Shown: piece by piece, positions 5,553-30,681 of the stretch | Numbering within the stretch: position 1 is the first letter of the stretch | How the letters are laid out: each line of letters begins with the position of its first letter | Source of the DNA: Candidatus Gottesmanbacteria bacterium GW2011_GWA2_43_14 | GTDB taxonomy: Bacteria; Patescibacteriota; Microgenomatia; 2-02-FULL-39-11 | Assembly: GCA_000999095.1 (NCBI GenBank) | Contig: LCFP01000012.1 | Location: forward strand, 68,140-132,139 | Reading direction: 5' to 3' | Length of the DNA stretch: 64,000 nucleotides | Made by a program: the position numbers and the translations under genes | Notes under the pieces: generated by a model | Told to the model about the DNA's origin: nothing | The model's database searches: none | Seen by the model: only the letters and a program-made list of their open reading frames with translations

Positions 5553-7238
5553 ATGGAAATTTTGGCTCTTATTTCATTCGGTTTATCGATTTATGCTATT
5601 TTGAGGGTAAACCGGTTGGAAAGCTATCTCAAGGAAAAATTTGACGGTGAGATCAAAGGTGAGGTTGTAAATCAAAAGACAGGGGAGGCGGAACCGGTTT
5701 TCGGGAAAAAAGAGAGTACGGCTAATATTTTCAGCTGGTTTGCCCACGAATGGCCTTTAAAAACAGGCGCACTCCTTATTCTCCTCGGATTTATCTGGCT
5801 GGTCACTTATGCCTTTTTAAATAACTGGGTGGGACCGTTGGGCAGGATTACTTTCGGCTTTCTCTCAGGCTCAGCCATCCTTTATTTAGGCGAAAAACGG
5901 TTAAAAACTGTTTCTTCCCAGGGAATAACCATGACCGGACTGGGAGCTGCGGTAATCATGATAACCGTTTATGCGGCCCAGCATGTTTACAGCATGTTTC
6001 CTGCCCCAATCGCCTTATTATTTACCTCTCTGACCATGATGATGACCGCCGCGGTCAGTTTAAAGTATAAAGTCAGGTCGCTGGCCATCTTCAGCCTGGC
6101 AATCGGAGGACTGGCTCCGCTTCTTATAGGCAGGGCGGGCGAAGGCATCCTGGGGCTTTATGGTTACCTTTTGGCTGTAACCGCCGGGGTGATCTGGCTG
6201 GCCGGTTATTCCCGCTGGAAAATCCTGATTTTTCTGTCGATGGTTACTATTTCATTCTACAGTTTTTCCTATTTTTTCCCGGGCAGGATTTTCCCCGGTT
6301 CGATCCTACTGCCGCAGGAGTTTTTCTACCTGAAATTTTTTGCGGTCACCTTCTCTAGCCTGTATTTTTTTACCATCCTTTTGTCCGTGGTTTCGCGCAA
6401 GGTGGAGGTTCCGGATTTGTTGGCAGCGGCAGCCCACGGCCTGTTTACCGTCGGCTGGATCAACGGCATTGTCCTGCCGGAATATAAAAGCGCGGTTACG
6501 CTTTTGGCGGCTGCTTTTTATCTCGGGGCCACCTACCTGGTTTTTCTCCGCACCAAGGTCAAAAACGCTCTTTTCCTCTATACCTTTATTTCCGTATTTC
6601 TGCTGACTTTGGCGGCGGTCTTTGAGTTTCAGGGACCGGTTCTGGTCATTGCCCTGTCGGTCGAGGCGGCTCTCCTGCCTATAGCTGCTCTGGCTTTGCT
6701 GAATCAGGAAATCGCCGGCTACCTGTTAGCACTTTTCATTCTGCCTTCCCTTTTTTCGGTGCCTTCCCTTTTTTCCGGCAAGTGGAACCTGGGGCTTCTT
6801 CAGAATGATTTTTATGCCCTGTCGGGGGTTACTCTGGCATACCTGACTTCCGGCTTTTATTTTCTCGGAAAATTCAGACAGAAGGATCATTCCCTGCACC
6901 GGGCGGCTATCCTCGTAACCATTGCCGGAGCCTATTATGCCTTATTTTTAATCTGGAAAATAAACCGGGTGTTTTTTACGCCTGATTATGTAGCCAGGAT
7001 GATCAGCCTGTTGATTTACTCCCTGGCCGGACTGTATTTTTATGTTAAGGGGGAATTGGAACAAAGAAAAATATTTTACCGTTTCGGCATGTCGGTACTT
7101 ATCTTTGTCGTTGCCAGGCTTTTGATTGTCGAGGTCTGGTCCATGGAAATAAGCTACCGGATTGTTACCTTCTTTTTGACGGGTTTGATGTTTACCGGGT
7201 CCGTAATTTTGAGGAAATCGAAGGTTACCCAAAAATGA
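5553..7238 (+). CDS. hypothetical large polytopic membrane protein (about 16-18 TM; DUF2339-like architecture)
   Basis: 561 aa, almost entirely hydrophobic helices. No catalytic motif recognised. Confidence 0.5.
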   Translation: MEILALISFGLSIYAILRVNRLESYLKEKFDGEIKGEVVNQKTGEAEPVFGKKESTANIFSWFAHEWPLKTGALLILLGFIWLVTYAFLNNWVGPLGRITFGFLSGSAILYLGEKRLKTVSSQGITMTGLGAAVIMITVYAAQHVYSMFPAPIALLFTSLTMMMTAAVSLKYKVRSLAIFSLAIGGLAPLLIGRAGEGILGLYGYLLAVTAGVIWLAGYSRWKILIFLSMVTISFYSFSYFFPGRIFPGSILLPQEFFYLKFFAVTFSSLYFFTILLSVVSRKVEVPDLLAAAAHGLFTVGWINGIVLPEYKSAVTLLAAAFYLGATYLVFLRTKVKNALFLYTFISVFLLTLAAVFEFQGPVLVIALSVEAALLPIAALALLNQEIAGYLLALFILPSLFSVPSLFSGKWNLGLLQNDFYALSGVTLAYLTSGFYFLGKFRQKDHSLHRAAILVTIAGAYYALFLIWKINRVFFTPDYVARMISLLIYSLAGLYFYVKGELEQRKIFYRFGMSVLIFVVARLLIVEVWSMEISYRIVTFFLTGLMFTGSVILRKSKVTQK

Positions 7239-8380
7239 AATTGAAAATCATCCTATTTTCAGTCTGCTTGTTATTTTTGAATTTGTCCGCTTCCGCCCGG
7301 GTTTCGGCGCTGACTTATTATGCGACTCCGGCAGAGTTGCCGGTTGCGGAAATAATCAGCAGTTTTCGCCTTTATCAGGTAATTGCGGATCTGCAATTAA
7401 GCGTTCCCTCGGTGGTAAAGTTTCCGTTAGACGGCAGTTCAGGCAGTTTTGCCGTTCTGGAAACGGAAAGCAATACTTTCCAGCCCTATAATGTCACCTC
7501 CGAACTGACAAAAGTACCGTTTACGGTTGAGAGCGGAAATGCTGATGATCCGTTTTTGAACGACGGCAATAATAATACTTTTGCGGAATATGCCCTGGTT
7601 GATGCGGGTGGCGAAAACACCGCGGTGCTTACTTTTTCCTATTCAAGGCCAATCAGTACATATCAGCTGAAATTCAGCCTGGCGGACAACGTCCAGCTGC
7701 CGGATGCGGTTTCAGTTGTTGAGCTAGGGGGAAATTTGGAAAGGATACTGATCAACCGCAAAGCGCTTTCAAACAGCGCGGTCAGTTTTCCGGCTTCAAA
7801 TGCTTCCTCCTTCAGGGTAATTTTTTATTACCGCCAGCCTTTGAGAATCAGCGAAATAGGCTTTAATGATACGGCCGGCAGAACCGCCCAAAAATATCTT
7901 TTGTTCCTGGCCGGCCCCGGATTGAATTACCATGTTTACAGTTCTGCCGAAGTCGTCCCATATATCAGGCTGCCTGAATCAGCCGACTTGCGGGCAGGGG
8001 CCGAAACCGTGGAAATCGCCGCGCCTCCCAAGGTATTAAACCCCTTCTTTAAAGAAGCCGATTCCGACCGGGACGGGATAGCTGACAAAAGGGACAATTG
8101 CCGCGACATCCATAATCCAGACCAGGCTGATGTCAACCGGAATTCACGCGGGGATGCCTGCGAAGATTTTGACCTTGACGGAGTCTTAAACGGCAAGGAC
8201 AATTGTCCTGACAAGCCGAACCGTTTGCAGCAGGATAGCGACCGCGACGGAGCCGGTGATCATTGCGATTCAACCGAAAACAGGATAATAGAGCGTTTCC
8301 CGTATTTGCCATGGCTGGGCATCGGGATCGGTTTTTTGATAGTGGCTTTAATATTTAAAACCGCCATTTCACCGAAATAA
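7235..8380 (+). CDS. secreted protein with thrombospondin type-3 (calcium-binding) repeats and a C-terminal TM anchor
   Basis: Signal peptide (MKLKIILFSVCLLFLNLSASA). TSP3 repeats (DSDRDGIADKRDNCRDIHNPDQADVN ... DLDGVLNGKDNCPDKPNRLQQDSDRDGAGDHCD). C-terminal hydrophobic segment. ATGA overlap with the upstream gene. Confidence 0.6.
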   Translation: MKLKIILFSVCLLFLNLSASARVSALTYYATPAELPVAEIISSFRLYQVIADLQLSVPSVVKFPLDGSSGSFAVLETESNTFQPYNVTSELTKVPFTVESGNADDPFLNDGNNNTFAEYALVDAGGENTAVLTFSYSRPISTYQLKFSLADNVQLPDAVSVVELGGNLERILINRKALSNSAVSFPASNASSFRVIFYYRQPLRISEIGFNDTAGRTAQKYLLFLAGPGLNYHVYSSAEVVPYIRLPESADLRAGAETVEIAAPPKVLNPFFKEADSDRDGIADKRDNCRDIHNPDQADVNRNSRGDACEDFDLDGVLNGKDNCPDKPNRLQQDSDRDGAGDHCDSTENRIIERFPYLPWLGIGIGFLIVALIFKTAISPK

Positions 8381-10373: not shown

Positions 10374-10454
10374 GGCCGATATGTGAAATTTGAGCTTTAC
10401 AAAGCTCTAATTTGCATTTCAGGAAGAAATGTATTATTATACAGCCCAATCTAT

Positions 10455-11195
10455 ATGAGAAACACTTTTTGGCGTTTTGTTTTTCTCCTGACTGCCGTTC
10501 TGGCGGTTTTTCCGGTGTCGGTATTGGCCCAGCCGGATTTGCCGAAAGGGTTGGCGGACCGCGGACCATTGACCAGGATTAAGTTCATTCATTACCGCAA
10601 GGCTCTTGCCAAACCATCTTCCCCCGGAAACTCCAAAAAACAAAATTCTTGTTTTAGCTATCTGGGTTCAGGGGCCAAATGGAGGACAGAGGAAGATTAT
10701 TTGGTCAATTTTTCGGGATCCGGACTTGATGAAACAGCTGTTTTGGATGCCGTAACCAAAGGGGAAAGCGAATGGGAAAAATACGGAAGCCAAAATATTT
10801 TCGGCCAGGGCAGAGCGGATGCCTCAGCTATCTATAGTGATGATTTTGACGGACAGAATGTGCTGGCGTTCGGTAATTATCCCGATGCGGGCGTAATTGC
10901 CGTCACCTCAGTCTGGGGATACTTTTCAGGACCTCCCGGCAAGCGGGAACTGGTGGAATGGGATATGCTTTTAAATACCGGTTCATCTTGGCAGTTCGGG
11001 GATGCTCTTAGCGATAGTTCCAAAATGGATTTGCAGAATATCACCACCCATGAATTAGGTCACAGCGCCGGTATGGGTGATCTTTACAGTCTTTCCTGCG
11101 ACCAGGAAACAATGTACGGCTATTCGGCGGAAGGTGAGATAATCAAACGGGACCTCAATCAGGGCGATATAGCCGGCATTTCCAGCCTCTATTAA
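10455..11195 (+). CDS. secreted zinc metalloprotease of the metzincin type (matrixin/snapalysin-like, HExxHxxGxxD)
   Basis: Signal peptide MRNTFWRFVFLLTAVLAVFPVSVLA. Zinc motif THELGHSAGMGDLY. Matrixin-like C-terminal DIAGISSLY. The ORF track starts at 10383, but the Met before the signal peptide (10455) is more likely. Confidence 0.6.
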   Translation: MRNTFWRFVFLLTAVLAVFPVSVLAQPDLPKGLADRGPLTRIKFIHYRKALAKPSSPGNSKKQNSCFSYLGSGAKWRTEEDYLVNFSGSGLDETAVLDAVTKGESEWEKYGSQNIFGQGRADASAIYSDDFDGQNVLAFGNYPDAGVIAVTSVWGYFSGPPGKRELVEWDMLLNTGSSWQFGDALSDSSKMDLQNITTHELGHSAGMGDLYSLSCDQETMYGYSAEGEIIKRDLNQGDIAGISSLY

Positions 11196-11990: not shown

Positions 11991-12026
11991 GCTACCCCGA
12001 TGGGAATCGGGAGTAGCTTTTTTTTT
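11991..12026 (+). terminator. intrinsic terminator (GC hairpin followed by a 9-T run)
   Basis: Hairpin GCTACCCCGATGGGAATCGGGAGTAGC followed by TTTTTTTTT. Confidence 0.7.
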
Positions 12027-12060: not shown

Positions 12061-13356
12061 ATGGGCATTATCAGGAAGATCACGTCACATAAACTTATCA
12101 GGGGCAGTTTCCTGGTTTTTTTGGCGTCCAATTTCGTCAATTTCGGCAACTTCCTCTTCAATCTCCTGATGGCCAGGCTTTTACCCAAGGAAGTCTACGG
12201 TGAGATGGGCGCTCTGTTTTCTCTGTCGATGATGGTCGGCATACCTTTATCCGTCTTCAACATTTATATCATCAAAATCGTTTCCGCCCTTTACGGTAAA
12301 AAGGATTATCCGAAAATCCGTTACCTGCGCTCTTTTATTTTCCCCAGGATTGTGGCCGTCTCGCTTCTGCTTTTTGCCCTGATTGCGGTAAATAGCCTCT
12401 TTCTGGCGGGCTTTCTGAAGCTTTCCTCATCAGTACCATTGATCATTATCGGCTTCAACATTCTTTTGGGCGGCCTTTCGGCCATAAACGGAGCAGTCCT
12501 TACAGGCATGCTGGCCTTTTCATATTCGGCTCTAAACGGCGCGGTGGAAGTCATCCTCAAGCTGCTGCTGTCCGTTTTCCTGGTTTTTTCAGGTTTCGGC
12601 TTGTACGGGGCGCTTCTGGGAGTTTCGATAAGCGCTTTTGCCCGCCTGCTTATGTCATCCTGGGAATTGAAGAAACTTGTTCCTGCAACTAGTGTCAAAC
12701 AATTTCAATTCAGCCGTTTGAAGGATATCGTGCCGGTTGTTTTGACCATGCTGATCTTGGTTTCGTTTCTGAATATCGATATTTTACTGGTCAGGCATTT
12801 TTTCAGCCCCGCCCGCGCCGGTGAATACGTTGCCCTCACCACAATCTCAAAGACCATTCTCTATGCCACCGGGCCTCTTATTACCGTCATGTTTCCGGTT
12901 ATCTCAAACAGGAAAAGCAGCGGCCTGCCGTATCTTCTGCCTCTTCTGGGCTGTCTTTTCGGATCAGCCCTGATTTCGCTTTTAGTCATTATGCTCTTTT
13001 CCATTTTCCCGGATTTTGTGGTCGGCATTCTTTTCGGAGGCAGATATGCCACGATCATTCCCTATATGGTTTATGCTGCCTTCTTTATGGCTGTTTTTAC
13101 TTTGAACGATATCCTGACTTATTTTCTGCTCTCGGCCTCATTTCATAGGTATATCTATATTCTGGCTTTGTTTCCGATCACCCAGGCTGTATTGATATTC
13201 CTGTTCCACGGCAATATCCGGACCGTCATCATGGTCAATATTTCCGTCAGCCTGCTGTATTTGTTGTCAGCTTTGATTATGATCTGGCGTAGTGAAGCGA
13301 AAAATCTTAAAATACTCTTTGCCAGGTACCTGCCGGCCCCCTTTTTCAATGAATGA
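12061..13356 (+). CDS. polysaccharide biosynthesis flippase (Wzx-like, MOP superfamily)
   Basis: 431 aa, about 12-14 TM helices. First gene of a long co-directional glycan locus. Confidence 0.55.
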   Translation: MGIIRKITSHKLIRGSFLVFLASNFVNFGNFLFNLLMARLLPKEVYGEMGALFSLSMMVGIPLSVFNIYIIKIVSALYGKKDYPKIRYLRSFIFPRIVAVSLLLFALIAVNSLFLAGFLKLSSSVPLIIIGFNILLGGLSAINGAVLTGMLAFSYSALNGAVEVILKLLLSVFLVFSGFGLYGALLGVSISAFARLLMSSWELKKLVPATSVKQFQFSRLKDIVPVVLTMLILVSFLNIDILLVRHFFSPARAGEYVALTTISKTILYATGPLITVMFPVISNRKSSGLPYLLPLLGCLFGSALISLLVIMLFSIFPDFVVGILFGGRYATIIPYMVYAAFFMAVFTLNDILTYFLLSASFHRYIYILALFPITQAVLIFLFHGNIRTVIMVNISVSLLYLLSALIMIWRSEAKNLKILFARYLPAPFFNE

Positions 13357-14107
13357 CAACAATAAACATAAACTATCGGTCATTATTCCGGCATACCGCC
13401 AGGCCAGGACAATCGTTACGGATATCAGGAATATCGAGTCGACGCTGAAAAAAATCCGCTATCCGTTCGAAATTATCGCCGTTGTTGACGGTTACGGGGA
13501 CGGCACCTACAGGCAACTGAAAAAAATTCTTTCACCGACTGTCAAAGCCACCGTTTACATGAAAAACCAGGGCAAAGGCCACGCCGTCAGGATCGGCATG
13601 GAGAAGGCGACAGGGGACTATGTGGCATTCATGGACGCCGGCAGGGAGATAGACCCCAACGGTATCTCCATGCTTCTGGAGCACATGGAATGGTACAATG
13701 CTGACATAATTGTCGGGTCCAAGAGGCATCCGGTCTCTTATGTCAACTATCCTCTGACTAGAAGAATTTTAAGCAGAGGTTACCAGTATATTATCTGGGC
13801 GTTGTTCCGGCTAAATGTGCGTGACACCCAGGCGGGCTTGAAAATCTTCAAAAGAAAAGTCCTAAAAAAAGTCCTGCCCAAACTTCTGGTTAAACAGTAT
13901 GCTTTCGATCTGGAAATGTTGGTAGTTGCCCGCCATCTGGGTTATAAACGAATCTTCGAAGCTCCCATCAAGCTAAAATATAATTTCTATTCAATGACCC
14001 GTGCTTCAAATATGCGAGCAATATATGGAATTTGGATTGATACTATGGCTATTTTTTACCGATTGTACATACTAAAATATTACGATCGGAAATCTATCAC
14101 TAAATGA
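13352..14107 (+). CDS. GT2 glycosyltransferase resembling polyprenyl-phosphate sugar synthases (DPM1/GtrB/ArnC type)
   Basis: LSVIIPAYRQARTI ... EIIAVVDGYGDGT ... YVAFMDAGREIDPNGISMLL ... DIIVGSKRH. Likely start MNDNNKHKLSVIIPAY at 13352, overlapping the flippase stop. Confidence 0.7.
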   Translation, partial: NDNNKHKLSVIIPAYRQARTIVTDIRNIESTLKKIRYPFEIIAVVDGYGDGTYRQLKKILSPTVKATVYMKNQGKGHAVRIGMEKATGDYVAFMDAGREIDPNGISMLLEHMEWYNADIIVGSKRHPVSYVNYPLTRRILSRGYQYIIWALFRLNVRDTQAGLKIFKRKVLKKVLPKLLVKQYAFDLEMLVVARHLGYKRIFEAPIKLKYNFYSMTRASNMRAIYGIWIDTMAIFYRLYILKYYDRKSITK

Positions 14108-15084
14108 CTTTAGAGCGCTTCAAATTTTCTGTAATTATCCCCTTTAAAAGTATAAATCCTTACGTACAGCAATGTCTCAATCACCTCAAGAAACAAAGCT
14201 ACCAGAATTTCGAAATTATCCTATTGCCTGATAAAAAGGAAAAAATTATTTATAAAAATGTTATATCTTTAGCTACAGGTTCTATTGGTCCTGCAGAAAA
14301 AAGAGATCTCGGTGCAAAAAAGGCAAGAGGAGAAATTCTGGCTTTTATTGACGATGATGCATATCCTCATCGGGATTGGCTGAAAAATTCTCTTAGTACA
14401 TTAAAAAATAAGAATGTGGCAGCGGTATGTGGGCCCGGGGTGACTCCTCGTGAAGATGATATCTTTAGACAGGCAGGAGGTTGGGTTAATTCACTCTGGT
14501 TTGGTTCAGGTGGAGCGGGTACATATCGTTTTATTCCTCAAAAAGAAAGGTCGGTTGATGATTATCCTTCGATGAATTTTATTGTCAGAAAGGTCGATTT
14601 TGATAAAGTAGGAGGTTTTAATACTCATTATTGGCCGGGAGAAGATACAAAATTATGTCTGGATTTAGTTTATAACTTAAAGAAGAAAATAATTTATCAG
14701 CCAAAAGTATTGGTTTATCACCACCGGAAACCCCTTTTTTTGCCTCATTTGAAACAGGTTTCCCGTTTCGCCATCCACCGTGGATATTTTGCCAGGGTTT
14801 TTCCTCAAACCTCATTAAGGTTCGGATACCTTATTCCTACGCTTTTTGTGTTGTTTTTGATTGTTGGGTTTTTTCTATCATTATTCTTTAAATCCCTTTC
14901 GCCATTGTACCTGATAAGTATAGGTGCCTATCTATCTGTCTTGACCATTAATATGGTCTATGTTATGGTAAAATCACGCAATATTTTAACAGGAGTTTTA
15001 ACGGGTACAGGTATTTTCTTGACCCATATATTCTATGGTATTCTTTTTCCATTAGGATTTCTGAAAAAAAATCTTAAACAATGA
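14104..15084 (+). CDS. GT2 glycosyltransferase with C-terminal transmembrane segments
   Basis: FSVIIPFKSINPYVQQCLNHLKKQSYQNFEIILLPD ... LAFIDDDAYPHRDWL. Two C-terminal TM helices. Confidence 0.7.
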   Translation: MTLERFKFSVIIPFKSINPYVQQCLNHLKKQSYQNFEIILLPDKKEKIIYKNVISLATGSIGPAEKRDLGAKKARGEILAFIDDDAYPHRDWLKNSLSTLKNKNVAAVCGPGVTPREDDIFRQAGGWVNSLWFGSGGAGTYRFIPQKERSVDDYPSMNFIVRKVDFDKVGGFNTHYWPGEDTKLCLDLVYNLKKKIIYQPKVLVYHHRKPLFLPHLKQVSRFAIHRGYFARVFPQTSLRFGYLIPTLFVLFLIVGFFLSLFFKSLSPLYLISIGAYLSVLTINMVYVMVKSRNILTGVLTGTGIFLTHIFYGILFPLGFLKKNLKQ

Positions 15085-16607
15085 AAATAGCCATATCGTA
15101 TCCTTCAATTGATACCAGTAAAGGAGTTCCACTGCTTTCCCAAAACCGCCAGTTCCAGTATTTCAATAATCCTACCTATATTTATCCGGTCGTTCCTGCC
15201 TACGCCGCTACAATGTTAAAAGAGGCAGGATACAAAGTAGCTTGGCTGGATGCTATTGCCGAAAGATGGCAGTTGTCAAAATATCTCGAGGAGTTGGAAA
15301 GAAGCCAGGCTGATATTCTGGCAATCGAAAGTAAAACACCGACTATCAAGCCATTCTGGAAAATCATCGATGATCTTAAAAAATTTTTCCCCAAGTTAAA
15401 AATAGTGCTTATGGGGGATCATGTCACGGCCATGCCTCTGGAATCGATGGAGAATTCAAAAGTTGATTTTGTCCTAACGGGAGGAGATTTCGATTTTGCT
15501 TTATTAAATCTGGTTAATTTTCTAAGTAAAAAAGTTAAATATTTGGAACCGGGTGTATATTACCGGGATAAAAAAGGGAAAATTTTAGACAGCGGACATT
15601 TCAAGCTCGATCACACACTGAAGAATCTGCCGCTGATTGACAGGGAACTAACACGGTGGTGGCTTTATGCCTATGCAAATGGCAATTTTAAATATACACC
15701 GGGGACCTATACCATGATCGGCCGGGACTGCTGGTGGCGACGACCATCAAGTGAAGGCGGTCACGGCTGCACTTTTTGCTCCTGGACTTCCACATTTCCC
15801 ACCTGGAGGGTTGGTACTCCGAAAATGTTGTTAAAAGAGGTAAAAAATTGTTTGAAGCTTGGTATTAGAGAGATATTTGATGATACCGGCACTTTTCCTA
15901 TTGGTCCCTGGTTGAAGGAATTTTGTGAGGGTATGATTGATAAGGGTTACCACAAAAAAATTAAAATCGGCTGCAATATGAGAGCTAATGGTATTAAAGA
16001 TCAGAGTACCTATGATTTGATGGGTAAAGCCGGCTTCCGCTTTATTCTCTATGGTCTTGAATCAGCTTCTCAAAACACTCTTGACCGTCTTAACAAAGGC
16101 ACTATACCGGCTGATATGGTGACGGGTGCAAAAATGGCCAGCAAAGCAAGATTAGAGCCACATGTGACCTGTATGGTCGGCTACCCCTGGGAATCAAAAG
16201 AAGAAGCGGAAACAACGGTAGCCAGAACAAAGGAATTATTTAATAAAGGCTGGATAAATACCCTGCAGGCGACAATTGTCATTCCGTACCCCGGTACGGC
16301 GCTTTTCAGGGAGTGCGAAAAAAATAAATGGCTAAAGACTAGGGATTGGAACAGATACGACATGAGAGAGCCGATCATGAAATCTCCTATTCCGGATGCA
16401 GAAATCATGGAACTTACCCAGAAAATTTACACTTCATTTTTGACACCGCGTTACATTTTAAGAAAGCTTTCATCCATCAGGTCTATGGATGACGTTAATT
16501 ATTATATTTTCCGCGGAGGCAAATACATTTGGGGTCACCTGAAAGACTTTGCAAAATCCCAATTATTGAAAAAGTCACATCCCACTTTAACTCCTAGCCT
16601 CAATTAA
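15081..16607 (+). CDS. B12-binding-domain radical SAM protein (class B-like)
   Basis: Rossmann-like B12-binding N-terminal domain (ADILAIESKTPTIK ... KIVLMGDHVTAMPLE). Cysteine cluster DCWWRRPSSEGGHGCTFCSW, i.e. an unusual Cx12CxxC spacing. Radical SAM core follows (GLESASQNTLDRLNKG). Confidence 0.6.
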   Translation: MKIAISYPSIDTSKGVPLLSQNRQFQYFNNPTYIYPVVPAYAATMLKEAGYKVAWLDAIAERWQLSKYLEELERSQADILAIESKTPTIKPFWKIIDDLKKFFPKLKIVLMGDHVTAMPLESMENSKVDFVLTGGDFDFALLNLVNFLSKKVKYLEPGVYYRDKKGKILDSGHFKLDHTLKNLPLIDRELTRWWLYAYANGNFKYTPGTYTMIGRDCWWRRPSSEGGHGCTFCSWTSTFPTWRVGTPKMLLKEVKNCLKLGIREIFDDTGTFPIGPWLKEFCEGMIDKGYHKKIKIGCNMRANGIKDQSTYDLMGKAGFRFILYGLESASQNTLDRLNKGTIPADMVTGAKMASKARLEPHVTCMVGYPWESKEEAETTVARTKELFNKGWINTLQATIVIPYPGTALFRECEKNKWLKTRDWNRYDMREPIMKSPIPDAEIMELTQKIYTSFLTPRYILRKLSSIRSMDDVNYYIFRGGKYIWGHLKDFAKSQLLKKSHPTLTPSLN

Positions 16608-16664
16608 TTAGAATACGTTAGTTGTTTCTGCTACCATGGTGAAAACAATAACTGATGTATTACT

Positions 16665-17543
16665 ATGTTTATAAATCATATCAATCCATTCATTTCCATA
16701 ATTATACCGACATATAATTCAGAAAAAGTACTCCCATTGACTTTACAGAGTATTAAATATCAGGATTATCAGCGGAATAGAATGGAAATTATCATAGTTG
16801 ATAATAAAAGTACTGATTACACAATACGGATAGCTAAAAAGTTTAATAGTAAAGTACTTTTTGTTGACGGAAAACCACCGCAAGTATGTCTCCAGAGAAA
16901 TTTAGGGGCAAGAAAGGCAAAAGGGGAATATCTATTTTTCTTGGATCATGACATGGAGCTGTCAAAGAATTTGCTTAAAAATTTTTTAATAAAAGTAAAA
17001 AAGTCAAATAATCAAATTGATGCCTGGTATATACCAGAAAAAATACATGGAAATAATTCAGTTATCAGCAAGATAAGAACATTCGAAAGAAGCTTTTATA
17101 ATGGGACGGTAATTGACGCTACCAGGATTATTAAAAAGAAAAAATTTTGGGATACTAATGACAAATATGATGTTTCTTTGTCCGGAGGGCCGGCAGATTG
17201 GGATTTGGATATTCAGTTAAACCTACTGAACTGTAAATTTGGAATTTTAAATGATTTTATTACCCATCACGAGGAAAGCCTTCATTTTTGGCAGTATATT
17301 TTTAAGAAAACAAAATATTTAAAAGGAATAAACATTTATAAAAAAAAATGGGAGAAAAAAAATAATTTGGTCCAGAATAAGGTTTTGCAAAAACAGTTTG
17401 GTTTTAATTATAGGTATATTGAAGTATTCCTTGAAAACAAAAAATGGAAAAAATTAATTTCACAACCGCATCTTACGATTGGAATGTATTTTTTAAGACT
17501 TCTTATCGGATTGAATTATTTGTTAAATGTTGTGAAGAAATAA
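16665..17543 (+). CDS. GT2 glycosyltransferase
   Basis: ISIIIPTYNSEKVLPLTLQSIKYQDY ... EIIIVDNKSTD ... YLFFLDHDMEL. Very AT-rich coding sequence. Confidence 0.7.
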   Translation: MFINHINPFISIIIPTYNSEKVLPLTLQSIKYQDYQRNRMEIIIVDNKSTDYTIRIAKKFNSKVLFVDGKPPQVCLQRNLGARKAKGEYLFFLDHDMELSKNLLKNFLIKVKKSNNQIDAWYIPEKIHGNNSVISKIRTFERSFYNGTVIDATRIIKKKKFWDTNDKYDVSLSGGPADWDLDIQLNLLNCKFGILNDFITHHEESLHFWQYIFKKTKYLKGINIYKKKWEKKNNLVQNKVLQKQFGFNYRYIEVFLENKKWKKLISQPHLTIGMYFLRLLIGLNYLLNVVKK

Positions 17544-17547
17544 TTCT

Positions 17548-18741
17548 ATGAAAGTTCTTTTAATAACTCCGACTTTTTTTCCCGATGTCGGCGGGGTAGA
17601 AACTATGCTTCTGAGATTTTGCGATTATTTAGTGAAAAAAAGAATTTATACTGAGGTGATTACGTTTAATCCATTATTTACGGTTAAGTCAACTCCGATA
17701 AGGGAAATATCCAATAAATATCTTACTATTATCAGAATTCCCTGGCTTGGATATGGATTGTTTAATGTTTTTGAGAAATATCCTATTATCCAGTTTTTTT
17801 ACCTGGTTCCGGCATTGACATTAACAACCTTGTTTTACTTGATGTTCAATAAATCTCGTCCGCGTATCATTCATGCCTTTGGATTATCCGCTGCTTTTGC
17901 AGGAGGAATCGTTTCTAGAATTTTAAAAATTGCCAATATAACAGATTTATGTACGGTTTATAGACTACCTCAGCGTCCTATACTTGCTTTATTTGTGAAA
18001 AGGATACTTGGTTGGAGTAATTATATTAGGGCTAATAATCCAAAAGGAAAAGAAGAATTAATAAAAATTGGCCTGAATGCTCAAAAAATCGGAATTATTA
18101 GTCCTCCAGTTGACGAATCGCTTTTTAGGCCAATGTCCAAAATTAAGGTAAGAAAAAAGCTTGGGTTAACACAAAATAAATTTATAGCTTTGTTTGTAGG
18201 ACGAATGGTAGAAAGTAAGAATGTTGATTTAGCAGTAAAAATTACTTCATTAATACACGACCGGAATATAATATTTATATTTATTGGAGAGGGACCTTTA
18301 CAGTATATGGTGGAGAAAATAGCAAAAAAAGATAAAAGGGTTAAGTATATGAGTAATGTTAGATATGAGGATTTAGTATATTATTATAATACTGCCGACA
18401 TACTTTTGTGTGCAGCAGTAGATGAAAAACTATTATCATTTGTTGGGCGGGAAGCTCTAATGTGTGGTTTACCAATTCTTGCTCCCAATGTTGGGAATTA
18501 TTTTGGAATTTCATACAAAATTAATAAGAATTTAGTTCCTTCACGGGTTGGTAAACTTATTCATCCACAACCAAAAGAATTTGCCCGTTATCTTGAAAAA
18601 TTAATTATTTATAAAAAAAGAAATAATAAAATTCCTTTTTCAAAAGATGATTGTAGGAAACATGCACTTGAAAATTATTCATCAAGTGCACTTAATTGGA
18701 TTGGTGATATTTATAAAACAATTGAGTCTAATAAATTTTAA
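17548..18741 (+). CDS. GT4 (group 1) glycosyltransferase
   Basis: C-terminal GT-B motifs (FVGRMVESKNVD ... EALMCGLPILAPNVGN). Confidence 0.65.
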   Translation: MKVLLITPTFFPDVGGVETMLLRFCDYLVKKRIYTEVITFNPLFTVKSTPIREISNKYLTIIRIPWLGYGLFNVFEKYPIIQFFYLVPALTLTTLFYLMFNKSRPRIIHAFGLSAAFAGGIVSRILKIANITDLCTVYRLPQRPILALFVKRILGWSNYIRANNPKGKEELIKIGLNAQKIGIISPPVDESLFRPMSKIKVRKKLGLTQNKFIALFVGRMVESKNVDLAVKITSLIHDRNIIFIFIGEGPLQYMVEKIAKKDKRVKYMSNVRYEDLVYYYNTADILLCAAVDEKLLSFVGREALMCGLPILAPNVGNYFGISYKINKNLVPSRVGKLIHPQPKEFARYLEKLIIYKKRNNKIPFSKDDCRKHALENYSSSALNWIGDIYKTIESNKF

Positions 18742-18768
18742 ATTTATTAATCGAGATAGACACTGATA

Positions 18769-19578
18769 ATGAAAAAAATAATTCAAATAATAAATAGAGA
18801 TACAGAGAAATATTTCTATAAGAATTATTACGGTGTTGTAAATGACAATATAGATTTTAAGACATTTGTAAATGAACAGTTAAATTTTCGTGGCGCGAAA
18901 GACAAAAACCAATTCTTATGGTTTTCAAAATTTATTAAACTTAAAAAGGAAAATACGATACTGGATTTCGGCTGTGATTTTGGGAATTTAGTTATATTAT
19001 TATGGAAAAAGGGCTATAAAGTTGATGGTAATGAAATAAATCAGGACATTTATCAAGTATTAAAACTCAGAGAAAAAATTTCTAAATTTAAAAAAGGATC
19101 ATTCATTTATTCGAATAATGGATCTGTTATAGCAAAAAAGAACTCATACGATATAATTTTATCGTATTTTGTATTAGTGCATGTAAGTGAGATTGAAGCT
19201 TACATCAAAAAATCAATTAGAGTTCTTAAACCCGAAGGAAAATTCATTTTTACAACCAGTAATTATCGAGTTGGATTCGAATATTATTATGCGTGTTGGT
19301 TACCATTATTTTCAAGAAATCTTTCAAAATTCATTTTAGGTATAAAAAAGAAAAATACTTTATTTATTGATGGATTAAATTTTATTACACCTGAAAAAGT
19401 TGAATCTGTGTTAAAAGAAATGAAATTAACTAATTCAATTAACGTAACAAACTTAGGCTCAAAGTTTTTCTTGAGAGAAATCTTTAACAATAAAATACAT
19501 CCATCAGTATTCATTAGGTATGCTAAATTATTTGATAAATTACATCTTATCCCGCTAATGGTAAAACTAAATTTTTAA
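18769..19578 (+). CDS. class I SAM-dependent methyltransferase
   Basis: Motif I ILDFGCDFGNL; post-I acidic residue; LKPEGKFIFTT. Confidence 0.6.
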   Translation: MKKIIQIINRDTEKYFYKNYYGVVNDNIDFKTFVNEQLNFRGAKDKNQFLWFSKFIKLKKENTILDFGCDFGNLVILLWKKGYKVDGNEINQDIYQVLKLREKISKFKKGSFIYSNNGSVIAKKNSYDIILSYFVLVHVSEIEAYIKKSIRVLKPEGKFIFTTSNYRVGFEYYYACWLPLFSRNLSKFILGIKKKNTLFIDGLNFITPEKVESVLKEMKLTNSINVTNLGSKFFLREIFNNKIHPSVFIRYAKLFDKLHLIPLMVKLNF

Positions 19579-19633
19579 AATCCGTTAATTTATGTAATTC
19601 AGAAATTATAAAATTATTTAAGCAAAAATCATT

Positions 19634-20206
19634 ATGTCTCAATTGTCTGTAAAAGATTTATTGAAGCTAAAATTTAAAAAACTGGGTAAAAATTTATATA
19701 TTTCTGATAAAACATCGTTTCATAATCCAACAAATATATCCATCGGTGATAATTCTAGAATTGATGATTATTGTGTTCTTTCAGCAGGTCGCGAAGGTAT
19801 AGATATTGGTAGAAATGTACATATAGCAGTTTATTCATCTTTAATTGGCCAAAGTAAAATTCGGATCGGCGATTTTACTAATATATCATCACGGGTATCT
19901 GTATACTCAAGCAATGATGATTATTCGGGAGAAACAATGACAAATCCAACAATCAATGAGAAATATAAGAAAGTAACGCATGGTAAAGTCGATATCGGTA
20001 AACATGTAATTATTGGATCGGGCAGTATCATATTACCAAATGTAATAATAGAGGATGGTGTCGCGGTAGGTGCACTCTCTCTGATAAAATCCAACTGTAA
20101 AAGTTTTAATATTTATGCAGGTATCCCTGCAAAAATTATTAAAAAACGGAGTAAAAAGCTTCTGAATCTGGAAAAGAGATATTTACTTTCTTTCCAGAGA
20201 AAATAA
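19634..20206 (+). CDS. hexapeptide-repeat (LbH) acyl/acetyltransferase, probably an amino-sugar N-acetyltransferase
   Basis: Repeated [LIV]GxxxxI hexapeptides (IGDNSRIDDYCVLSAG, IGRNVHIAVYSSLIG, IRIGDFTNISSRVSVY, IGKHVIIGSGSIILPNVII). Adjacent to a sugar aminotransferase. Confidence 0.65.
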   Translation: MSQLSVKDLLKLKFKKLGKNLYISDKTSFHNPTNISIGDNSRIDDYCVLSAGREGIDIGRNVHIAVYSSLIGQSKIRIGDFTNISSRVSVYSSNDDYSGETMTNPTINEKYKKVTHGKVDIGKHVIIGSGSIILPNVIIEDGVAVGALSLIKSNCKSFNIYAGIPAKIIKKRSKKLLNLEKRYLLSFQRK

Positions 20207-20211
20207 ATTTT

Positions 20212-21345
20212 ATGGATCTAAAGCCATTCAAAAAACCGATTTACATTACTCGTCCCATCTTGCCTAATCTACAGGCAATGCAGGATAAGCTCAAACAAAT
20301 ATGGATCACAAAATGGTTATCTAACAACGGTTATCAGCATAGATTGTTTGAACGAGAAATCCAGAAAGTATTAAAGGTCCCTTGCGTTTCTTTATTCAAT
20401 AACGGAACCATTGCGCTGCTTACGGCCGTAAGAGCACTCAATCTTTCCGGAGAAGTAATCACAACTCCCTTTACGTTCCCCGCAACTCCACACGTACTTT
20501 CTTGGAATAATATTCAACCTGTGTTTTGCGATATAGATCCTGTTTCCCTGACAATTGATGCTAATAAAATTGAAAAACAAATTAACAAGAAAACTACAGC
20601 AATCCTTGCAGTGCATGTTTTCGGTAATCCGTGTAACATTTATAAAATCCAAAAAATTGCTTCCCGTTACAACCTTAAAGTAATTTATGATGCTGCACAT
20701 GCTTTTGAAGTTGAATTAAACGGTATTGGAATAGGTAATTTTGGTGATCTCACAATGTTTAGTTTTCACCCGACCAAGCTTTTTCATACCGCCGAAGGAG
20801 CGGCTTTAACGGGTAAAAAGCATGAACTGAAAAAGAAAGTTGATCTCTTAAAAAATTTTGGTATAAAAAATGAGGAAGAAGTGGTAGAGATCGGGATCAA
20901 TGGAAAAATGAATGAAATACAGGCAGCCTTAGGCTTATTAGTATTAAAAATTAAGAATAAGGAGCGCATGAAAAGAAAGTTGTTATGTGCAACCTACAGA
21001 AACTGTTTAATTAATACAGAGGGGATTTCCATTTTGGGAGAAGAATCTAATATTAAAAACAGTTATCAATATTTAGTAATTAGAATTGATCAAAAAAAAT
21101 TTGGCAGATCCAGAAACTTTATATATAGCAAGCTAAAAGAATATAACATATTTACTCGAAAATATTTTTATCCGCTCTGTAGTAATTTTCCTTATTATAA
21201 AAATCACAAATCATCAGGGAGTAAGAATCTACCGGAAGCTACAAAGGCTGTGGAAGAAGTACTTTCAATGCCATTTTATGGTGAGTTAAAAGTGGTTGAT
21301 ATCGAAAAAATCTGTACAATACTTAAAAATCTTAAGACGAAATGA
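20212..21345 (+). CDS. DegT/DnrJ/EryC1/StrS family PLP-dependent sugar aminotransferase
   Basis: Family hallmark FSFHPTKLFHTAEGAAL (Schiff-base Lys). Overall length about 377 aa. Confidence 0.8.
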   Translation: MDLKPFKKPIYITRPILPNLQAMQDKLKQIWITKWLSNNGYQHRLFEREIQKVLKVPCVSLFNNGTIALLTAVRALNLSGEVITTPFTFPATPHVLSWNNIQPVFCDIDPVSLTIDANKIEKQINKKTTAILAVHVFGNPCNIYKIQKIASRYNLKVIYDAAHAFEVELNGIGIGNFGDLTMFSFHPTKLFHTAEGAALTGKKHELKKKVDLLKNFGIKNEEEVVEIGINGKMNEIQAALGLLVLKIKNKERMKRKLLCATYRNCLINTEGISILGEESNIKNSYQYLVIRIDQKKFGRSRNFIYSKLKEYNIFTRKYFYPLCSNFPYYKNHKSSGSKNLPEATKAVEEVLSMPFYGELKVVDIEKICTILKNLKTK

Positions 21346-22037
21346 AATCGCAAAAATTATTAAAAATAAATATTGGTTCAGGTCCTATAGGCAGATCAGA
21401 TTGGATAAATTTGGACTGGGGAATTCTGCCACTATTAAGCAAACTTCCTTTGCTAATCCGATTATTAGTCAATTTAAAGTTATTGCCGCGTGGATATAAT
21501 AAACCATGGCCGAGTAATCCCGTACTGCACGATTGCCGTAAAAAGCTTCCTTTTTCTGATTCAACCGTAGATTTCATATATTCATCCCATTTTTTGGAAC
21601 ACCTTTATCGTTTTCAGGCAATAGAATTATTAAAAGACTGTAAAAGAATATTAAAACCAAATGGAATTATAAGAATTGTTGTACCTGATTTAGCTATTTT
21701 GGCAGAAAAATACTTAAAAAATGACAAGGTTTTCTATAATAAATTATTATCTGATAGTGAAAGAAAAAATACGATTTCCAAATATTTAGCCGATGAGTTT
21801 GTGAATAATTTTAATGGATATGAATCCTGGGATAAATCAAATTTAATTCAAAAAATTCAACGATTATTTATCAGGGGACACTTATGGATGTATGACTATG
21901 AATCTCTAAAAAATATTTTAATTACTCTCGGTTTCAGAAAAATAATAAGATGCAAGCCTGGAATCGGAAAAGTACCTAATATAAAATATTTGGATATTCA
22001 TAAGTTTGGTAGTTTACTTATTGAATCTTCAAAATAA
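21342..22037 (+). CDS. class I SAM-dependent methyltransferase
   Basis: LKINIGSGPIGRSDWINLD (motif I); LKPNGIIRIVVPD. ATGA overlap with the upstream gene. Confidence 0.55.
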   Translation: MKSQKLLKINIGSGPIGRSDWINLDWGILPLLSKLPLLIRLLVNLKLLPRGYNKPWPSNPVLHDCRKKLPFSDSTVDFIYSSHFLEHLYRFQAIELLKDCKRILKPNGIIRIVVPDLAILAEKYLKNDKVFYNKLLSDSERKNTISKYLADEFVNNFNGYESWDKSNLIQKIQRLFIRGHLWMYDYESLKNILITLGFRKIIRCKPGIGKVPNIKYLDIHKFGSLLIESSK

Positions 22038-22056
22038 TTTTCTATAAATTAAATTA

Positions 22057-23223
22057 ATGAATAAGCGAAAAATATTGTTTATAGCTTCAGCATTAGACGG
22101 TTCTACCATAAATCAAGGTATTAGCGGAGGAGAGGTTAGACTTGCTGAAATTATAAAGGCATTTATTAAAAATAATTGGGAAGTTCATTTTCTGGCAAAT
22201 AAAAACAATAATATTTTCTGTGAACACTTTAATCTTAATAATGTCATAAACCATAATTTTAATATTCAATACAATAATACTAGATTCTGGTTTATTAAAT
22301 TCACCTTAAAGGTATTATTTACTTTGCCTGAAAGTCTGAAGGATTTTAAAGGAAATATTTATACCGCAAATGAACAATTATATGATGTAATTCCTGCCGT
22401 TAAATTAAAGTTAAACAACAGTAATATTTGGACAGCAATTGTTCATTGGCTTCCTCCTTATAAATTCTGGCAAAGAAAAAAATCAAATTGGTATAACTCC
22501 TTGATTTTTATGTTAGCAGAAATGATAAGCATACTGCTGATTAAATATCTTGCCGATAAATCTCTGGCTGTATCAAACTCCACTAGAAATCAATTGCTGA
22601 AAATTGGTTTTAGTAAAAATAAAGTTATAGCTGTGGAATGCGGTGTCGATTTTGGTTTAATTACACAAATAAGTAAAAAAAAGTCTAGAAAAGAATTCGA
22701 CGCTGTCTTCATAAAAAGAATCCAGGCTGTAAAAGGAGTATTTGATTTAATTGATATATGGAAATTAGTACTTAAGAAAATTCCAAATGTTAAGTTGGCT
22801 ATAATCGGCGGTAGCATTGATAATTCGTTACTAATAAATGAAATAAGAAAAGAAAAGTTATATAATAATATATCTTTTTTTGGCCCGATCATTGATTTTA
22901 AAAAGAAAATTCAGATTCTTTTATCTTCGAAGCTTTTTATTCTTCCAAGTTATGAAGAAAACTGGGCAATCGTAATTGGTGAAGCAATGGCATGTAAAAT
23001 ACCAGTGCTAGCTTACGGACTCCACGAGCTAATTGACGTCTGGAAAAATAATTTCTTCCCAATAAAAGTAGGAAATAAAGGGGAATTTGCACGTACTATT
23101 ATTCGCTATCTGGGCAATGAAAAACTACGAATAAGCCAAGCAGACATAGGTTATAAATATATTCAGCAGTTTGATTGGAAGAAGATTGCTGAAAGGGAAG
23201 TTAAAATTATCCAAAGCTTATGA
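22057..23223 (+). CDS. GT4 glycosyltransferase
   Basis: GT-B C-terminal domain (LAIIGGSID ... FILPSYEENWAIVIGEAMACKIPVLAYG). Confidence 0.65.
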   Translation: MNKRKILFIASALDGSTINQGISGGEVRLAEIIKAFIKNNWEVHFLANKNNNIFCEHFNLNNVINHNFNIQYNNTRFWFIKFTLKVLFTLPESLKDFKGNIYTANEQLYDVIPAVKLKLNNSNIWTAIVHWLPPYKFWQRKKSNWYNSLIFMLAEMISILLIKYLADKSLAVSNSTRNQLLKIGFSKNKVIAVECGVDFGLITQISKKKSRKEFDAVFIKRIQAVKGVFDLIDIWKLVLKKIPNVKLAIIGGSIDNSLLINEIRKEKLYNNISFFGPIIDFKKKIQILLSSKLFILPSYEENWAIVIGEAMACKIPVLAYGLHELIDVWKNNFFPIKVGNKGEFARTIIRYLGNEKLRISQADIGYKYIQQFDWKKIAEREVKIIQSL

Positions 23224-24296
23224 AAATAGCAATAATTTTGGGAACACGGCCGGAGATAATCAAAATGAGCCCTATTATCAAAGAATGTCAACACAGAAAA
23301 CTCGATTTTTTTATTTTACACACGAACCAGCATTATTCAACAAATCTAGATTCAATATTTTTCAAAGAACTCTGCCTTCCCCATCCGCAATATAATTTAC
23401 AGATTGGATCAGGAACCCATGCGGAAGAGACTGGTAAAATGCTTATTGGTATTGAGAAAATACTAAAGAAGGAAAATCCAAATATCATATTAGTCGAAGG
23501 TGACACAAATACAGTATTAGCCGGAGCATTATCAGCTGCTAAGCTTCGGATTAAAGTCGGACACGTAGAGGCCGGACTTAGGTCATATTTTCGGGAAATG
23601 CCGGAAGAAATTAATAGAATATTAACTGACCACTTATCTGATTATTTATTTACACCAACTACCCAAACTAAAGAAATTCTGTTAAGAGAAGGCATTAGCC
23701 AGGAAAGGATATTTTTAACTGGAAATACAATTGTTGATGCCGTATTCCAAAATTTGAAAATTGCTGAAGAAAAATCACAAATATTAAAAAAAATAAAATT
23801 AAAGAAAAACAATTATTTATTATTGACTGTTCACAGACAGGAAAATGTTGATATTAGAAATCGGTTAAACCAAATTATGAGCGGAATAGGTAAAATTTAT
23901 CGTAAATATAATTTACCGATAATCTACCCGATTCACCCTAGATCTTCAAAGATGATTAAACAGTTCAAAATAATTATTCCTGATGGAGTAAAGATAATCA
24001 ATTCGGTTGGGTATCTTGATTTTCTTAATCTAGAAGCTAGCTCAAGGCTTGTGTTAACGGATTCAGGAGGAGTTCAAGAGGAAACATGCGTACTTCAAGT
24101 TCCTTGTGTGACATTACGGGATAATACCGAAAGACCGGAAACCATAGAAGTTGGTAGTAATATTCTGGCAGGAGTGAATCCCCAAAAAATTCTTCAATCG
24201 ACTGAATTTATGTTAAATAAAAAGAAGCATTGGGAAAATCCGTTTGGAAGTGGAAAATCTTCTCTGACTATTTTAAATATAATTACCCATATATGA
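23220..24296 (+). CDS. wecB: UDP-N-acetylglucosamine 2-epimerase (non-hydrolysing)
   Basis: MKIAIILGTRPEIIKMSPII, HVEAGLRSY, DSGGVQEET, which are the conserved WecB/MnaA segments. Confidence 0.85.
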   Translation: MKIAIILGTRPEIIKMSPIIKECQHRKLDFFILHTNQHYSTNLDSIFFKELCLPHPQYNLQIGSGTHAEETGKMLIGIEKILKKENPNIILVEGDTNTVLAGALSAAKLRIKVGHVEAGLRSYFREMPEEINRILTDHLSDYLFTPTTQTKEILLREGISQERIFLTGNTIVDAVFQNLKIAEEKSQILKKIKLKKNNYLLLTVHRQENVDIRNRLNQIMSGIGKIYRKYNLPIIYPIHPRSSKMIKQFKIIIPDGVKIINSVGYLDFLNLEASSRLVLTDSGGVQEETCVLQVPCVTLRDNTERPETIEVGSNILAGVNPQKILQSTEFMLNKKKHWENPFGSGKSSLTILNIITHI

Positions 24297-29481: not shown

Positions 29482-29482
29482 T

Positions 29483-30487: not shown

Positions 30488-30681
30488 TTGAAAAAGATGT
30501 TCCTTTGTGGCTGTCAGTAGAAGCAAAAGGCTCGAATTTTAAATATTCCTTGTCAATGGATGATAAATCCTATTCCGAGCTGGCCCAGGTAAATGACTCG
30601 GAATATAAAGAGGGCGGCCTGGGAATAGCAGTTCTTGATTTGGGAGCCACTCTTTTTGACATGTTTGACTTCTCTCAATAA
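30463..30681 (+). pseudogene. frame-shifted C-terminal continuation of the preceding gene (indel or sequencing error around ...TCATTAATAATTTTATAG...)
   Basis: Open frame YGVINNFIVEKDVPLWLSVEAKGSNFKYSLSMDDKSYSELAQVNDSEYKEGGLGIAVLDLGATLFDMFDFSQ*. It reads through the stop of 29483..30487 and has no start codon or SD of its own. Confidence 0.4.

Follow-up and report, generated by a model that had tools for sequence, protein, structure and literature searches.

What does a B12-binding radical S-adenosylmethionine (SAM) enzyme with unusually spaced cluster cysteines do among the genes of a glycan locus? The question is raised by a 64-kb stretch of DNA from Candidatus Gottesmanbacteria bacterium GW2011_GWA2_43_14, a bacterium of the candidate phyla radiation; the whole stretch is called the window below. 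To our knowledge, class-B (B12-binding) radical SAM enzymes are very numerous, but reactions have been established for only a few dozen, and almost none has been assigned to cell-envelope glycan assembly. The gene at 15081-16607 of the window, hereafter the radical SAM gene, encodes an intact two-domain class-B enzyme, in which an N-terminal Rossmann B12-type domain precedes a radical SAM core folded as a partial TIM barrel. Its family is uncharacterised and very conserved across Bacteria and Archaea, and its conserved partner is the glycosyltransferase gene directly upstream. We put at about 0.5 the probability that the enzyme carries out a radical modification, most likely a C-methylation, of a sugar that this glycosyltransferase has installed on a membrane-bound acceptor.

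Domains, fold and cluster cysteines

The gene and the parts of its product (the query protein) were located in the window as follows.

15081-16607, forward strand: radical SAM gene, the subject of this study, an ATG-to-TAA open reading frame of 508 amino acids encoding a B12-binding radical SAM enzyme
15198-15479, forward strand: N-terminal Rossmann-type B12-binding domain, residues 40-133, PF02310
15729-15779, forward strand: predicted [4Fe-4S] motif C217-x12-C230-x2-C233, directly after strand beta1 (residues 208-211)
15744-15767, forward strand: lineage-specific loop insertion, residues 222-229, PSSEGGHG, by which Cx4 or Cx7 becomes Cx12
15762-16220, forward strand: radical SAM core, residues 228-380, PF04055

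The class-B architecture proposed in an earlier note on this DNA was borne out by profile search, in which both Pfam domains scored above their gathering cut-offs. PF02310 matched with 40.5 bits (E 2.9e-10, cut-off 32.1) and PF04055 with 54.8 bits (E 1.7e-14, cut-off 29.5), the latter placing the protein among radical SAM enzymes by profile. The protein was 100% identical to a database entry of the same bacterium that is labelled only "radical SAM protein". Its AlphaFold2 model reached a predicted local distance difference test score (pLDDT) of 92.2 and a predicted template modelling score of 0.92. In this model the B12-binding domain has an alternating strand-helix pattern and the core is TIM-barrel-like, matching radical SAM folds; no hydrophobic segment was found in the protein. 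The best fold matches in the PDB were MgmA, AprD4, OxsB, TsrM, CysS and TokK, which are only 12-17% identical to the query, and the PDB sequence search gave only weak matches, to MgmA, AprD4 and OxsB. MgmA (9ccb) and AprD4 (6fd2) are the closest solved structures by both sequence and fold (15-17% identity), and act on a protein glutamine and on paromamine, respectively. OxsB is 15-16% identical and has extra domains.

In the family alignment of 47 members, G112-D113-H114 and G134-G135 were invariant in the B12-binding domain, as were D267-D268-x-G270, E327-S328 and G367-x-P369-W370-E371 in the core. By analogy with other class-B enzymes, the three core motifs would sit at the sites expected for SAM binding (GGE-like, ribose and GxIxGxxE-like motifs). 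Class-B enzymes bind cobalamin base-off and His-off, and hence no sequence motif is diagnostic for cobalamin (PMC13331322).

The query protein contains 8 cysteines (217, 230, 233, 257, 282, 298, 364 and 412) and a single cluster motif, DCWWRRPSSEGGHGCTFCSW, which corresponds to C217-x12-C230-x2-C233. The canonical Cx3Cx2C occurs nowhere in the protein and was absent from all 120 closest protein clusters. When 117 of these clusters (those shorter than 600 amino acids, 54-100% identical) were aligned, the signature RDC...C(T/S/K)FC(S/A)W was invariant while the distance between Cys1 and Cys2 varied. C217, C230 and C233 were conserved in 47 of the 47 aligned family members, a degree of conservation that speaks against a chance motif. 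In the AlphaFold2 model the motif comes immediately after strand beta1, the place that it has in all radical SAM enzymes. More distant relatives were collected by an exhaustive search of 1.84 billion representatives, followed by a scan and alignment. At about 30% identity these proteins bear the standard class-B signature sRGCPxxCxFC, with the first cysteine aligned to C217 and the RGC aligned with the RDC of the query family. One relative of 45% identity carries RDCPMKCSFC, with x3 spacing, at the site of the query motif. The earlier note had named a canonical motif elsewhere in homologues as an argument against its reading; the canonical triad of the more distant relatives instead falls on the same three cysteines that the note had picked as cluster ligands. 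These results indicated that C217, C230 and C233 are the predicted [4Fe-4S] ligands of the protein, and we hold the identity of the enzyme and of its ligands with high confidence.

The assignment is independently supported by inteins, which in 8 homologues are inserted directly before C217 (after D216) or directly before C233 (after F232), so that Cys1 or Cys3 is the +1 splice nucleophile. Inteins tend to home to catalytic sites under the strongest constraint. The inserted elements are about 350-440 amino acids long, carry LAGLIDADG/intein Pfam domains, and occupy two independent sites within one 17-residue motif. The site at D216/C217 (equivalent to 15726-15731 of the window) is used in homologues P0071, P0079, P0108 and P0121, and that at F232/C233 (equivalent to 15774-15779) in P0122 and P0124.

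A further group of relatives has lost the cluster cysteines. In P0135, P0137, P0140, P0144 and P0152, which are full-length and 36-42% identical to the query, all three are replaced, for example as RDSDWGQSSLGS. These proteins retain the rest of the fold signature and are possibly non-catalytic pseudo-enzymes.

Length of the loop between the first two cysteines

Residues 222-229 of the query correspond to a gap in most aligned homologues, and its Cx12Cx2C motif is a canonical cluster loop with an eight-residue insertion, rich in Gly, Ser and Pro, between Cys1 and Cys2. The insertion point is constant and lies after the fourth residue past Cys1 (WWR[RK], insert, G-C). Several loop types were distinguished: CWWGKC or CWHAKC (x4), CWWRKDGGC (x7), the type of the query (x11-13), and still longer forms of x15 and x18. 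This variability indicates that Cx12 is a lineage-specific decoration and not a different cluster-binding mode.

To count these forms, the 80 best species-level genomes were compared with 189 family sequences, among which the query's own clade is over-represented. In the genomes the loop was x4 in 60, x7 in 19 and x15 in one, and x12 was not found. In the sequences, x7 occurred 78 times, x4 64 times, x12 32 times, x18 seven times, x11 four times, x15 three times and x13 once; the long loops (x11-18) amounted to 47 of the 189. On a rough neighbour-joining tree of the same sequences, the long forms fell into at least five separate clades nested among x7 clades. The Cx12CxxC spacing, which the earlier note suggested looking for in homologues, is a rare, lineage-specific form, the common states being Cx4 and Cx7, and represents an expansion at an indel hot spot.

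Such repeated expansion might reflect a function. For example, the lineage's electron donor, a ferredoxin or flavodoxin, could dock on the extended loop at the cluster face, or the loop could shield the cluster. A role of this kind would explain the independent expansions in five or more clades; moreover, loops of the Cx12 clade keep the pattern RRP-x3-GG-x-G, and the cluster loop of radical SAM enzymes is exposed at the surface. However, most of the family, archaeal as well as bacterial, has only x4 or x7. The composition of the insertion is that of a tolerated surface element, and residues 221-230 have a pLDDT of 74, the lowest of the radical SAM core, in keeping with a flexible insertion at the surface. 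We consider a functional loop quite unlikely, and the extension is most simply explained as a tolerated surface insertion.

Extended spacings are known elsewhere. In QueE (7-carboxy-7-deazaguanine synthase), Cx14Cx2C occurs in some species as a within-family insertion that leaves cluster binding intact, and the comparison with QueE made in the earlier note is a fair analogy in this respect. The analogy is structural only and implies no sequence relationship: QueE belongs to another radical SAM subgroup, lacks a B12 domain, and its model was not among the query's Pfam or NCBIfam matches at E <= 1. Within class B, the one-residue-longer Cx4 has been described in OxsB and GenD1 (PMC9204698, PMC4340712), and it is also the ground state of the query family, as the genome counts indicated; no x7-x18 variants have been reported for OxsB and GenD1. 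Other spacings have been catalogued in other radical SAM subgroups, and the canonical spacing is not strictly required of members (PMC9477430). The Cx7Cx2C and Cx11Cx2C megaclusters of RadicalSAM.org were considered as the query family and rejected, as they are of the ELP3/YhcC type and not of the B12 type (PMC9477430). In a neighbouring subfamily (P0141, P0159, P0164, P0195, P0199 and P0212) with the signature RGCG...C.FC(I/V/S)WQ, long loops of x9, x10 and x17 were observed, indicating that loop expansion is not confined to the query family.

The Cx12 spacing alone is a minor curiosity, the phenomenon being already known from Cx4 in class B and from the large inserts of QueE. The query family offers a natural experiment on stretching of the cluster loop, from x3 to x18, without loss of the cluster. 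Annotation pipelines that demand Cx3Cx2C will miss or misflag such proteins. The family itself is more noteworthy, as it is uncharacterised, conserved in both domains of life and tied to a family 2 glycosyltransferase (GT2), with inteins at two cluster cysteines and cysteine-less paralogues.

Family, conserved partner and proposed reaction

The query protein reached no curated family cut-off in NCBIfam. The top match was the hopanoid-associated HpnJ (TIGR03471, an equivalog model), with 128.9 bits against a cut-off of 577.6, followed by BchE (TIGR02026, also an equivalog; 102.4 against 481), PhpK (72 against 600), MgmA (35 bits, far below its cut-off) and AprD4 (NF033070; 19.5 against 500). 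HpnJ and BchE outscored PhpK, HpnR and MgmA. Membership of the HpnJ, BchE, PhpK, MgmA and AprD4 families was rejected, since all scores were far below the cut-offs; some databases nonetheless label homologues of the query as BchE. For all intermediate relatives tested from the exhaustive search, HpnJ was again the best model (105-471 bits, none reaching the cut-off), and the intermediates most distant from the query gave its highest scores. The query family therefore lies at the edge of an HpnJ-like superclade.

The query and HpnJ share the two-domain architecture and the signature C(T/S)FC(S/L)W after Cys2. On the other hand, HpnJ-proximal proteins have the canonical Cx3Cx2C instead of Cx12Cx2C. 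The genomic context also differs: the neighbours of the query are generic glycan-assembly genes, and no hopanoid genes (hpnI, hpnK or squalene-hopene cyclase) were found nearby. Unlike HpnJ, the query family spans archaea and candidate-phyla bacteria.

In a word-indexed search, 6,419 clusters matched the query at E <= 1e-5, while the exhaustive search gave 172 clusters at 50% identity with E <= 1e-30, a number this low because the family members are so alike. At least 575 genome loci encode a relative, and in the best 80 of these the relatives are 51-65% identical to the query and come from both domains. Bacterial carriers include Chloroflexota, Verrucomicrobiota, Chlamydiae, Elusimicrobiota, Saccharibacteria, Nitrospinota and Gammaproteobacteria; archaeal carriers include Bathyarchaeia, Nitrososphaerales, Micrarchaeota, ANME-2 and the cultured Methanocaldococcus indicus SL43. 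We define the family by the signature RDC[WY][WH]...C[TSK]FC[SA]W, a cross-domain identity above 50% and an orthologue of the upstream glycosyltransferase immediately upstream, all of which apply to the query. A literature search, one query of which was too permissive, found no description of this family or of a GT2-coupled B12 radical SAM enzyme.

To identify the partner, the locus around the gene was annotated.

12061-13356, forward strand: Wzx-type flippase (Polysacc_synt_3, Pfam), the first gene of the operon
13292-14107, forward strand: GT2a, a soluble GT2 resembling polyprenyl-phosphate sugar synthases (best NCBIfam match PpgS, 56.7 bits, below cut-off)
14104-15084, forward strand: GT2b, a membrane-anchored, synthase-like GT2 (Pfam Glycos_transf_2 and Glyco_trans_2_3)
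16665-17543, forward strand: GT2c, the downstream GT2 and a variable partner (Pfam)
17548-30487, forward strand: variable remainder of the glycan locus, of low GC content (27-34%; Pfam)

The radical SAM gene sits in an operon-like array in the order flippase, GT2a, GT2b, radical SAM gene, GT2c and then the variable genes. GT2a and GT2b share an ATGA overlap (14104-14107), and so do GT2b and the radical SAM gene (15081-15084), the stop codon of GT2b lying on the start of the latter. The translational coupling to both flanking GT2 genes that the earlier note described holds for the upstream side; downstream, GT2c follows after a gap of 57 nt with no overlap.

The neighbourhoods of 86 loci from other organisms were then surveyed, 76 of them with enough upstream DNA. 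Of these 76, in Bacteria and Archaea alike, 71 had an orthologue of GT2b (36-51% identity) upstream in the same orientation, and in 54 loci the gap to the radical SAM gene was below 200 nt. Under strict clustering, GT2a recurred in 28 loci and the flippase in 22; in many loci GT2a lies about 1.7-1.8 kb upstream of the radical SAM gene. Across the 86 loci, DegT, acetyltransferase and methyltransferases were not conserved as neighbours. From this conserved gene order, a functional coupling of the radical SAM enzyme to GT2b is very likely.

GT2b carries the motifs DxD, GEDT and QxSR[FY] and ends in three C-terminal hydrophobic helices. Its AlphaFold2 model (pLDDT 93.6) gave hyaluronan synthases, BcsA and the archaeal membrane mannosyltransferase PcManGT as best full-length fold matches. 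With its transmembrane helices and synthase fold, GT2b appears to be a small membrane-embedded, synthase-like GT2 acting at the membrane interface. Assignments as an HpnI-, GtrB- or DPMS-like enzyme were rejected, since no such profile (including the NCBIfam model of HpnI) or PDB sequence matched and the fold is synthase-like.

In the reaction that we favour, GT2b would place a sugar on a membrane-bound acceptor, probably polyprenyl- or lipid-linked, at the cytoplasmic face. The soluble radical SAM enzyme would then abstract a hydrogen from this sugar by means of the 5'-deoxyadenosyl radical and modify it, perhaps by cobalamin-mediated C-methylation of an unactivated sugar carbon. Further glycosyltransferases would extend the modified glycan, and the flippase would then flip it outward. 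The radical SAM enzyme and the membrane-embedded GT2b would thereby form a translationally coupled module, often accompanied by the PpgS-like GT2a and the Wzx flippase; PpgS is a polyprenyl-phosphate GalNAc synthase. The choice of C-methylation is a tentative guess, made as it is the commonest outcome of class-B chemistry. The high conservation, the presence in at least several hundred species-level genomes and the tie to one membrane GT2 point to a single, widespread sugar modification.

The earlier note had instead linked the enzyme to the DegT aminotransferase and the acetyltransferase and to radical chemistry, such as C-methylation, on sugar or aminosugar precursors; in such a pathway the enzyme would C-methylate a nucleotide-activated aminosugar precursor before glycosyl transfer. 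DegT, the hexapeptide acetyltransferase, an epimerase and several methyltransferases do share the operon-like array of the radical SAM gene, and DegT-type genes lie within 6 kb of it in some other loci. However, DegT occurred in only about a dozen of the 86 loci, at variable positions, and the acetyltransferase in 2, while GT2b was adjacent in the large majority. Moreover, the class-B enzymes known to work on sugars do so once the sugar has been transferred: the substrates are pseudo-oligosaccharides for GenK and GenD1, a lipid-linked saccharide for MoeK5 and hopanoid-glucosamine for HpnJ (PMC4340712, PMC9204698, PMC13459092; in part general background). With GT2b as the conserved partner, the enzyme more likely acts on an already transferred sugar than on an aminosugar precursor, and the precursor route appears very improbable.

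Enzymes of the reaction type proposed here are known among the class-B C-methyltransferases. MoeK5, Fom3 and GenK, whose substrates are sugars or small polar compounds, are likened to the query by description, as is GenD1, which C-methylates an already-transferred aminosugar (PMC4340712, PMC9204698). GenK and MoeK5 likewise C-methylate sugars after their transfer, in the case of MoeK5 on a lipid-linked saccharide (PMC9204698).

A radical rearrangement without methylation would involve the same enzyme, module and substrate class. The lipid-linked sugar would undergo ring contraction from a pyranose to a cyclopentitol, or epimerisation: a glycosyltransferase would install the sugar, the radical SAM enzyme would contract or rearrange it, and a second glycosyltransferase would extend it. 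Ring contraction has been proposed for HpnJ, which would convert hopanoid-glucosamine to a cyclitol ether, and for the calditol synthase Cds (PMC13459092, PMC9385802). In support of such a reaction, HpnJ was the top curated match of the query and of every intermediate tested, and it acts on a membrane-lipid-linked sugar downstream of the glycosyltransferase HpnI, in parallel to the pair of GT2b and radical SAM enzyme (PMC13459092). The calditol pathway has been proposed to run from a glycosyltransferase through the radical SAM enzyme to a second glycosyltransferase (PMC9385802), matching the order GT2b, radical SAM gene and GT2 in 27 loci. Cds (Saci_1489) also remodels a lipid-attached hexose (PMC9385802, PMC13459092); it was compared by description only, and is found mainly in acidophilic archaea, whereas the query family is widespread in lineages of neutral groundwater and sediment. 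The cross-domain identity of 51-65% would fit a fixed, simple substrate.

Against a rearrangement, the HpnJ score of 129 bits is far from the equivalog cut-off of 578, and no hopanoid or tetraether-lipid genes lie near the radical SAM gene in the window. Published similarity networks group the methylases Fom3 and MoeK5 together with HpnJ (PMC9204698), so that proximity to HpnJ is compatible with methylation. Furthermore, the chemistry of HpnJ and Cds is itself biochemically unproven. On balance, we regard a rearrangement as unlikely, though worth serious attention. Equally doubtful in our view is its broader form, in which GT2b and the radical SAM enzyme would form a module of ancient origin that moves horizontally and occurs in hundreds of bacterial and archaeal lineages. 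This module would make a modified, as yet undescribed sugar on a lipid carrier in the membrane by chemistry other than simple methylation, for example an HpnJ/calditol-type ring contraction to a carbocyclic (cyclitol) unit. If this were true, radical remodelling of sugars to carbocycles would be a general trait of prokaryotic surface glycans and glycolipids, beyond hopanoids and Sulfolobus lipids.

The role of cobalamin was considered separately. AprD4 is described as not using cobalamin, though it has a B12-like domain, and the N-terminal domain of the query could be a similar cobalamin-free relic. In that case the 5'-deoxyadenosyl radical would drive a 1,2-diol dehydration, deoxygenation or oxidation. 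AprD4 (6fd2) was the second-best structural match, with the highest TM-scores (0.68-0.77), the family profile matched it with E 3.9e-9, and the annotated parts of the window showed neither a cobalamin riboswitch nor a cobalamin transporter. In contrast, PF02310 matched above its gathering score, the Rossmann-domain residues are strongly conserved, the NCBIfam AprD4 model gave 19.5 bits where 500 are required, and the cassette contains no conserved AprD3-like partner reductase. A cobalamin-free enzyme is improbable on these grounds. Both the AprD4-like, cobalamin-independent reaction and the route through a nucleoside diphosphate-linked aminosugar are less likely than methylation or rearrangement.

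Several observations also weigh against C-methylation of a GT2b-installed sugar, the reaction that we favour. C-methylation, which the earlier note had suggested, remains plausible, but the nearest curated families, HpnJ (129 bits) and BchE (102 bits), are non-methylases, and the intermediates grade towards HpnJ. Cobalamin binding is not guaranteed, given that AprD4, with its B12-like domain, is the second-best fold match. An Rfam scan of the whole 64-kb window at gathering thresholds, in which tRNA was not scanned separately, found no RNA family, rRNA or riboswitch, and hence no cobalamin riboswitch, and candidate-phyla bacteria generally cannot make B12. The gene 3' of the radical SAM gene is variable: among 60 loci with a nearby open reading frame downstream on the same strand, this is a related GT2 in 27. 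Finally, all the functional steps of the proposed pathway are ones that we infer.

Surroundings of the radical SAM gene

The variable remainder of the glycan locus (17548-30487) contains family 4 glycosyltransferases, four class-I methyltransferases, the hexapeptide acetyltransferase, the DegT aminotransferase, a UDP-GlcNAc 2-epimerase and a 920-amino-acid polytopic membrane protein. Most of the glycan locus is covered by a low-GC island at about 14000-30500, with a GC content of 27-38% compared to 46-50% in the flanks. Such an island is typical of horizontally exchanged surface-glycan gene sets, and GT2b and the radical SAM gene lie at its upstream edge. A terminator-like hairpin at 11996-12011 precedes the flippase gene; apart from it, a promoter and terminator scan around the radical SAM gene gave nothing above the shuffled background.

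The 920-amino-acid protein (26719-29481, forward strand) had no Pfam or NCBIfam match. About 12 hydrophobic segments at its N terminus are followed by a large middle domain, and a transmembrane helix lies at the C terminus. Over its C-terminal region it shares 42% identity (E 1e-13) with the end of a 974-amino-acid protein of Methanocaldococcus indicus (L021, 10480-13404). It is a candidate GT-C/YfhO-like transferase, which would use lipid-linked sugars outside the membrane.

In the complete genome of this cultured archaeon (strain SL43), the cassette of GT2b and the radical SAM gene lies beside a DDE transposase gene (L021, 4348-13404). The cassette is followed by genes for a small membrane protein, a GT2, a methyltransferase, a second GT2 and the 974-amino-acid membrane protein, which closes the locus. 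In another locus of the survey, one with Cx4 spacing, a second and different B12-binding radical SAM gene (L003, 15440-16705, 421 amino acids) was found 6 kb downstream in the same glycan cluster, where it follows DegT and epimerase genes.

Elsewhere in the window, a second radical SAM gene encodes a MiaB-type methylthiotransferase (UPF0004 and Radical_SAM) and adjoins MiaA, the IPP transferase (2372-3622 and 3733-4632, forward strand), and CoaBC is encoded at 289-1533. Upstream of the glycan operon lie genes for a thrombospondin type-3 repeat protein and for a protein with a matrixin-like (Peptidase_M10) C-terminal region (7235-8380 and 10383-11195, forward strand), the latter being unusual for a candidate-phyla bacterium.

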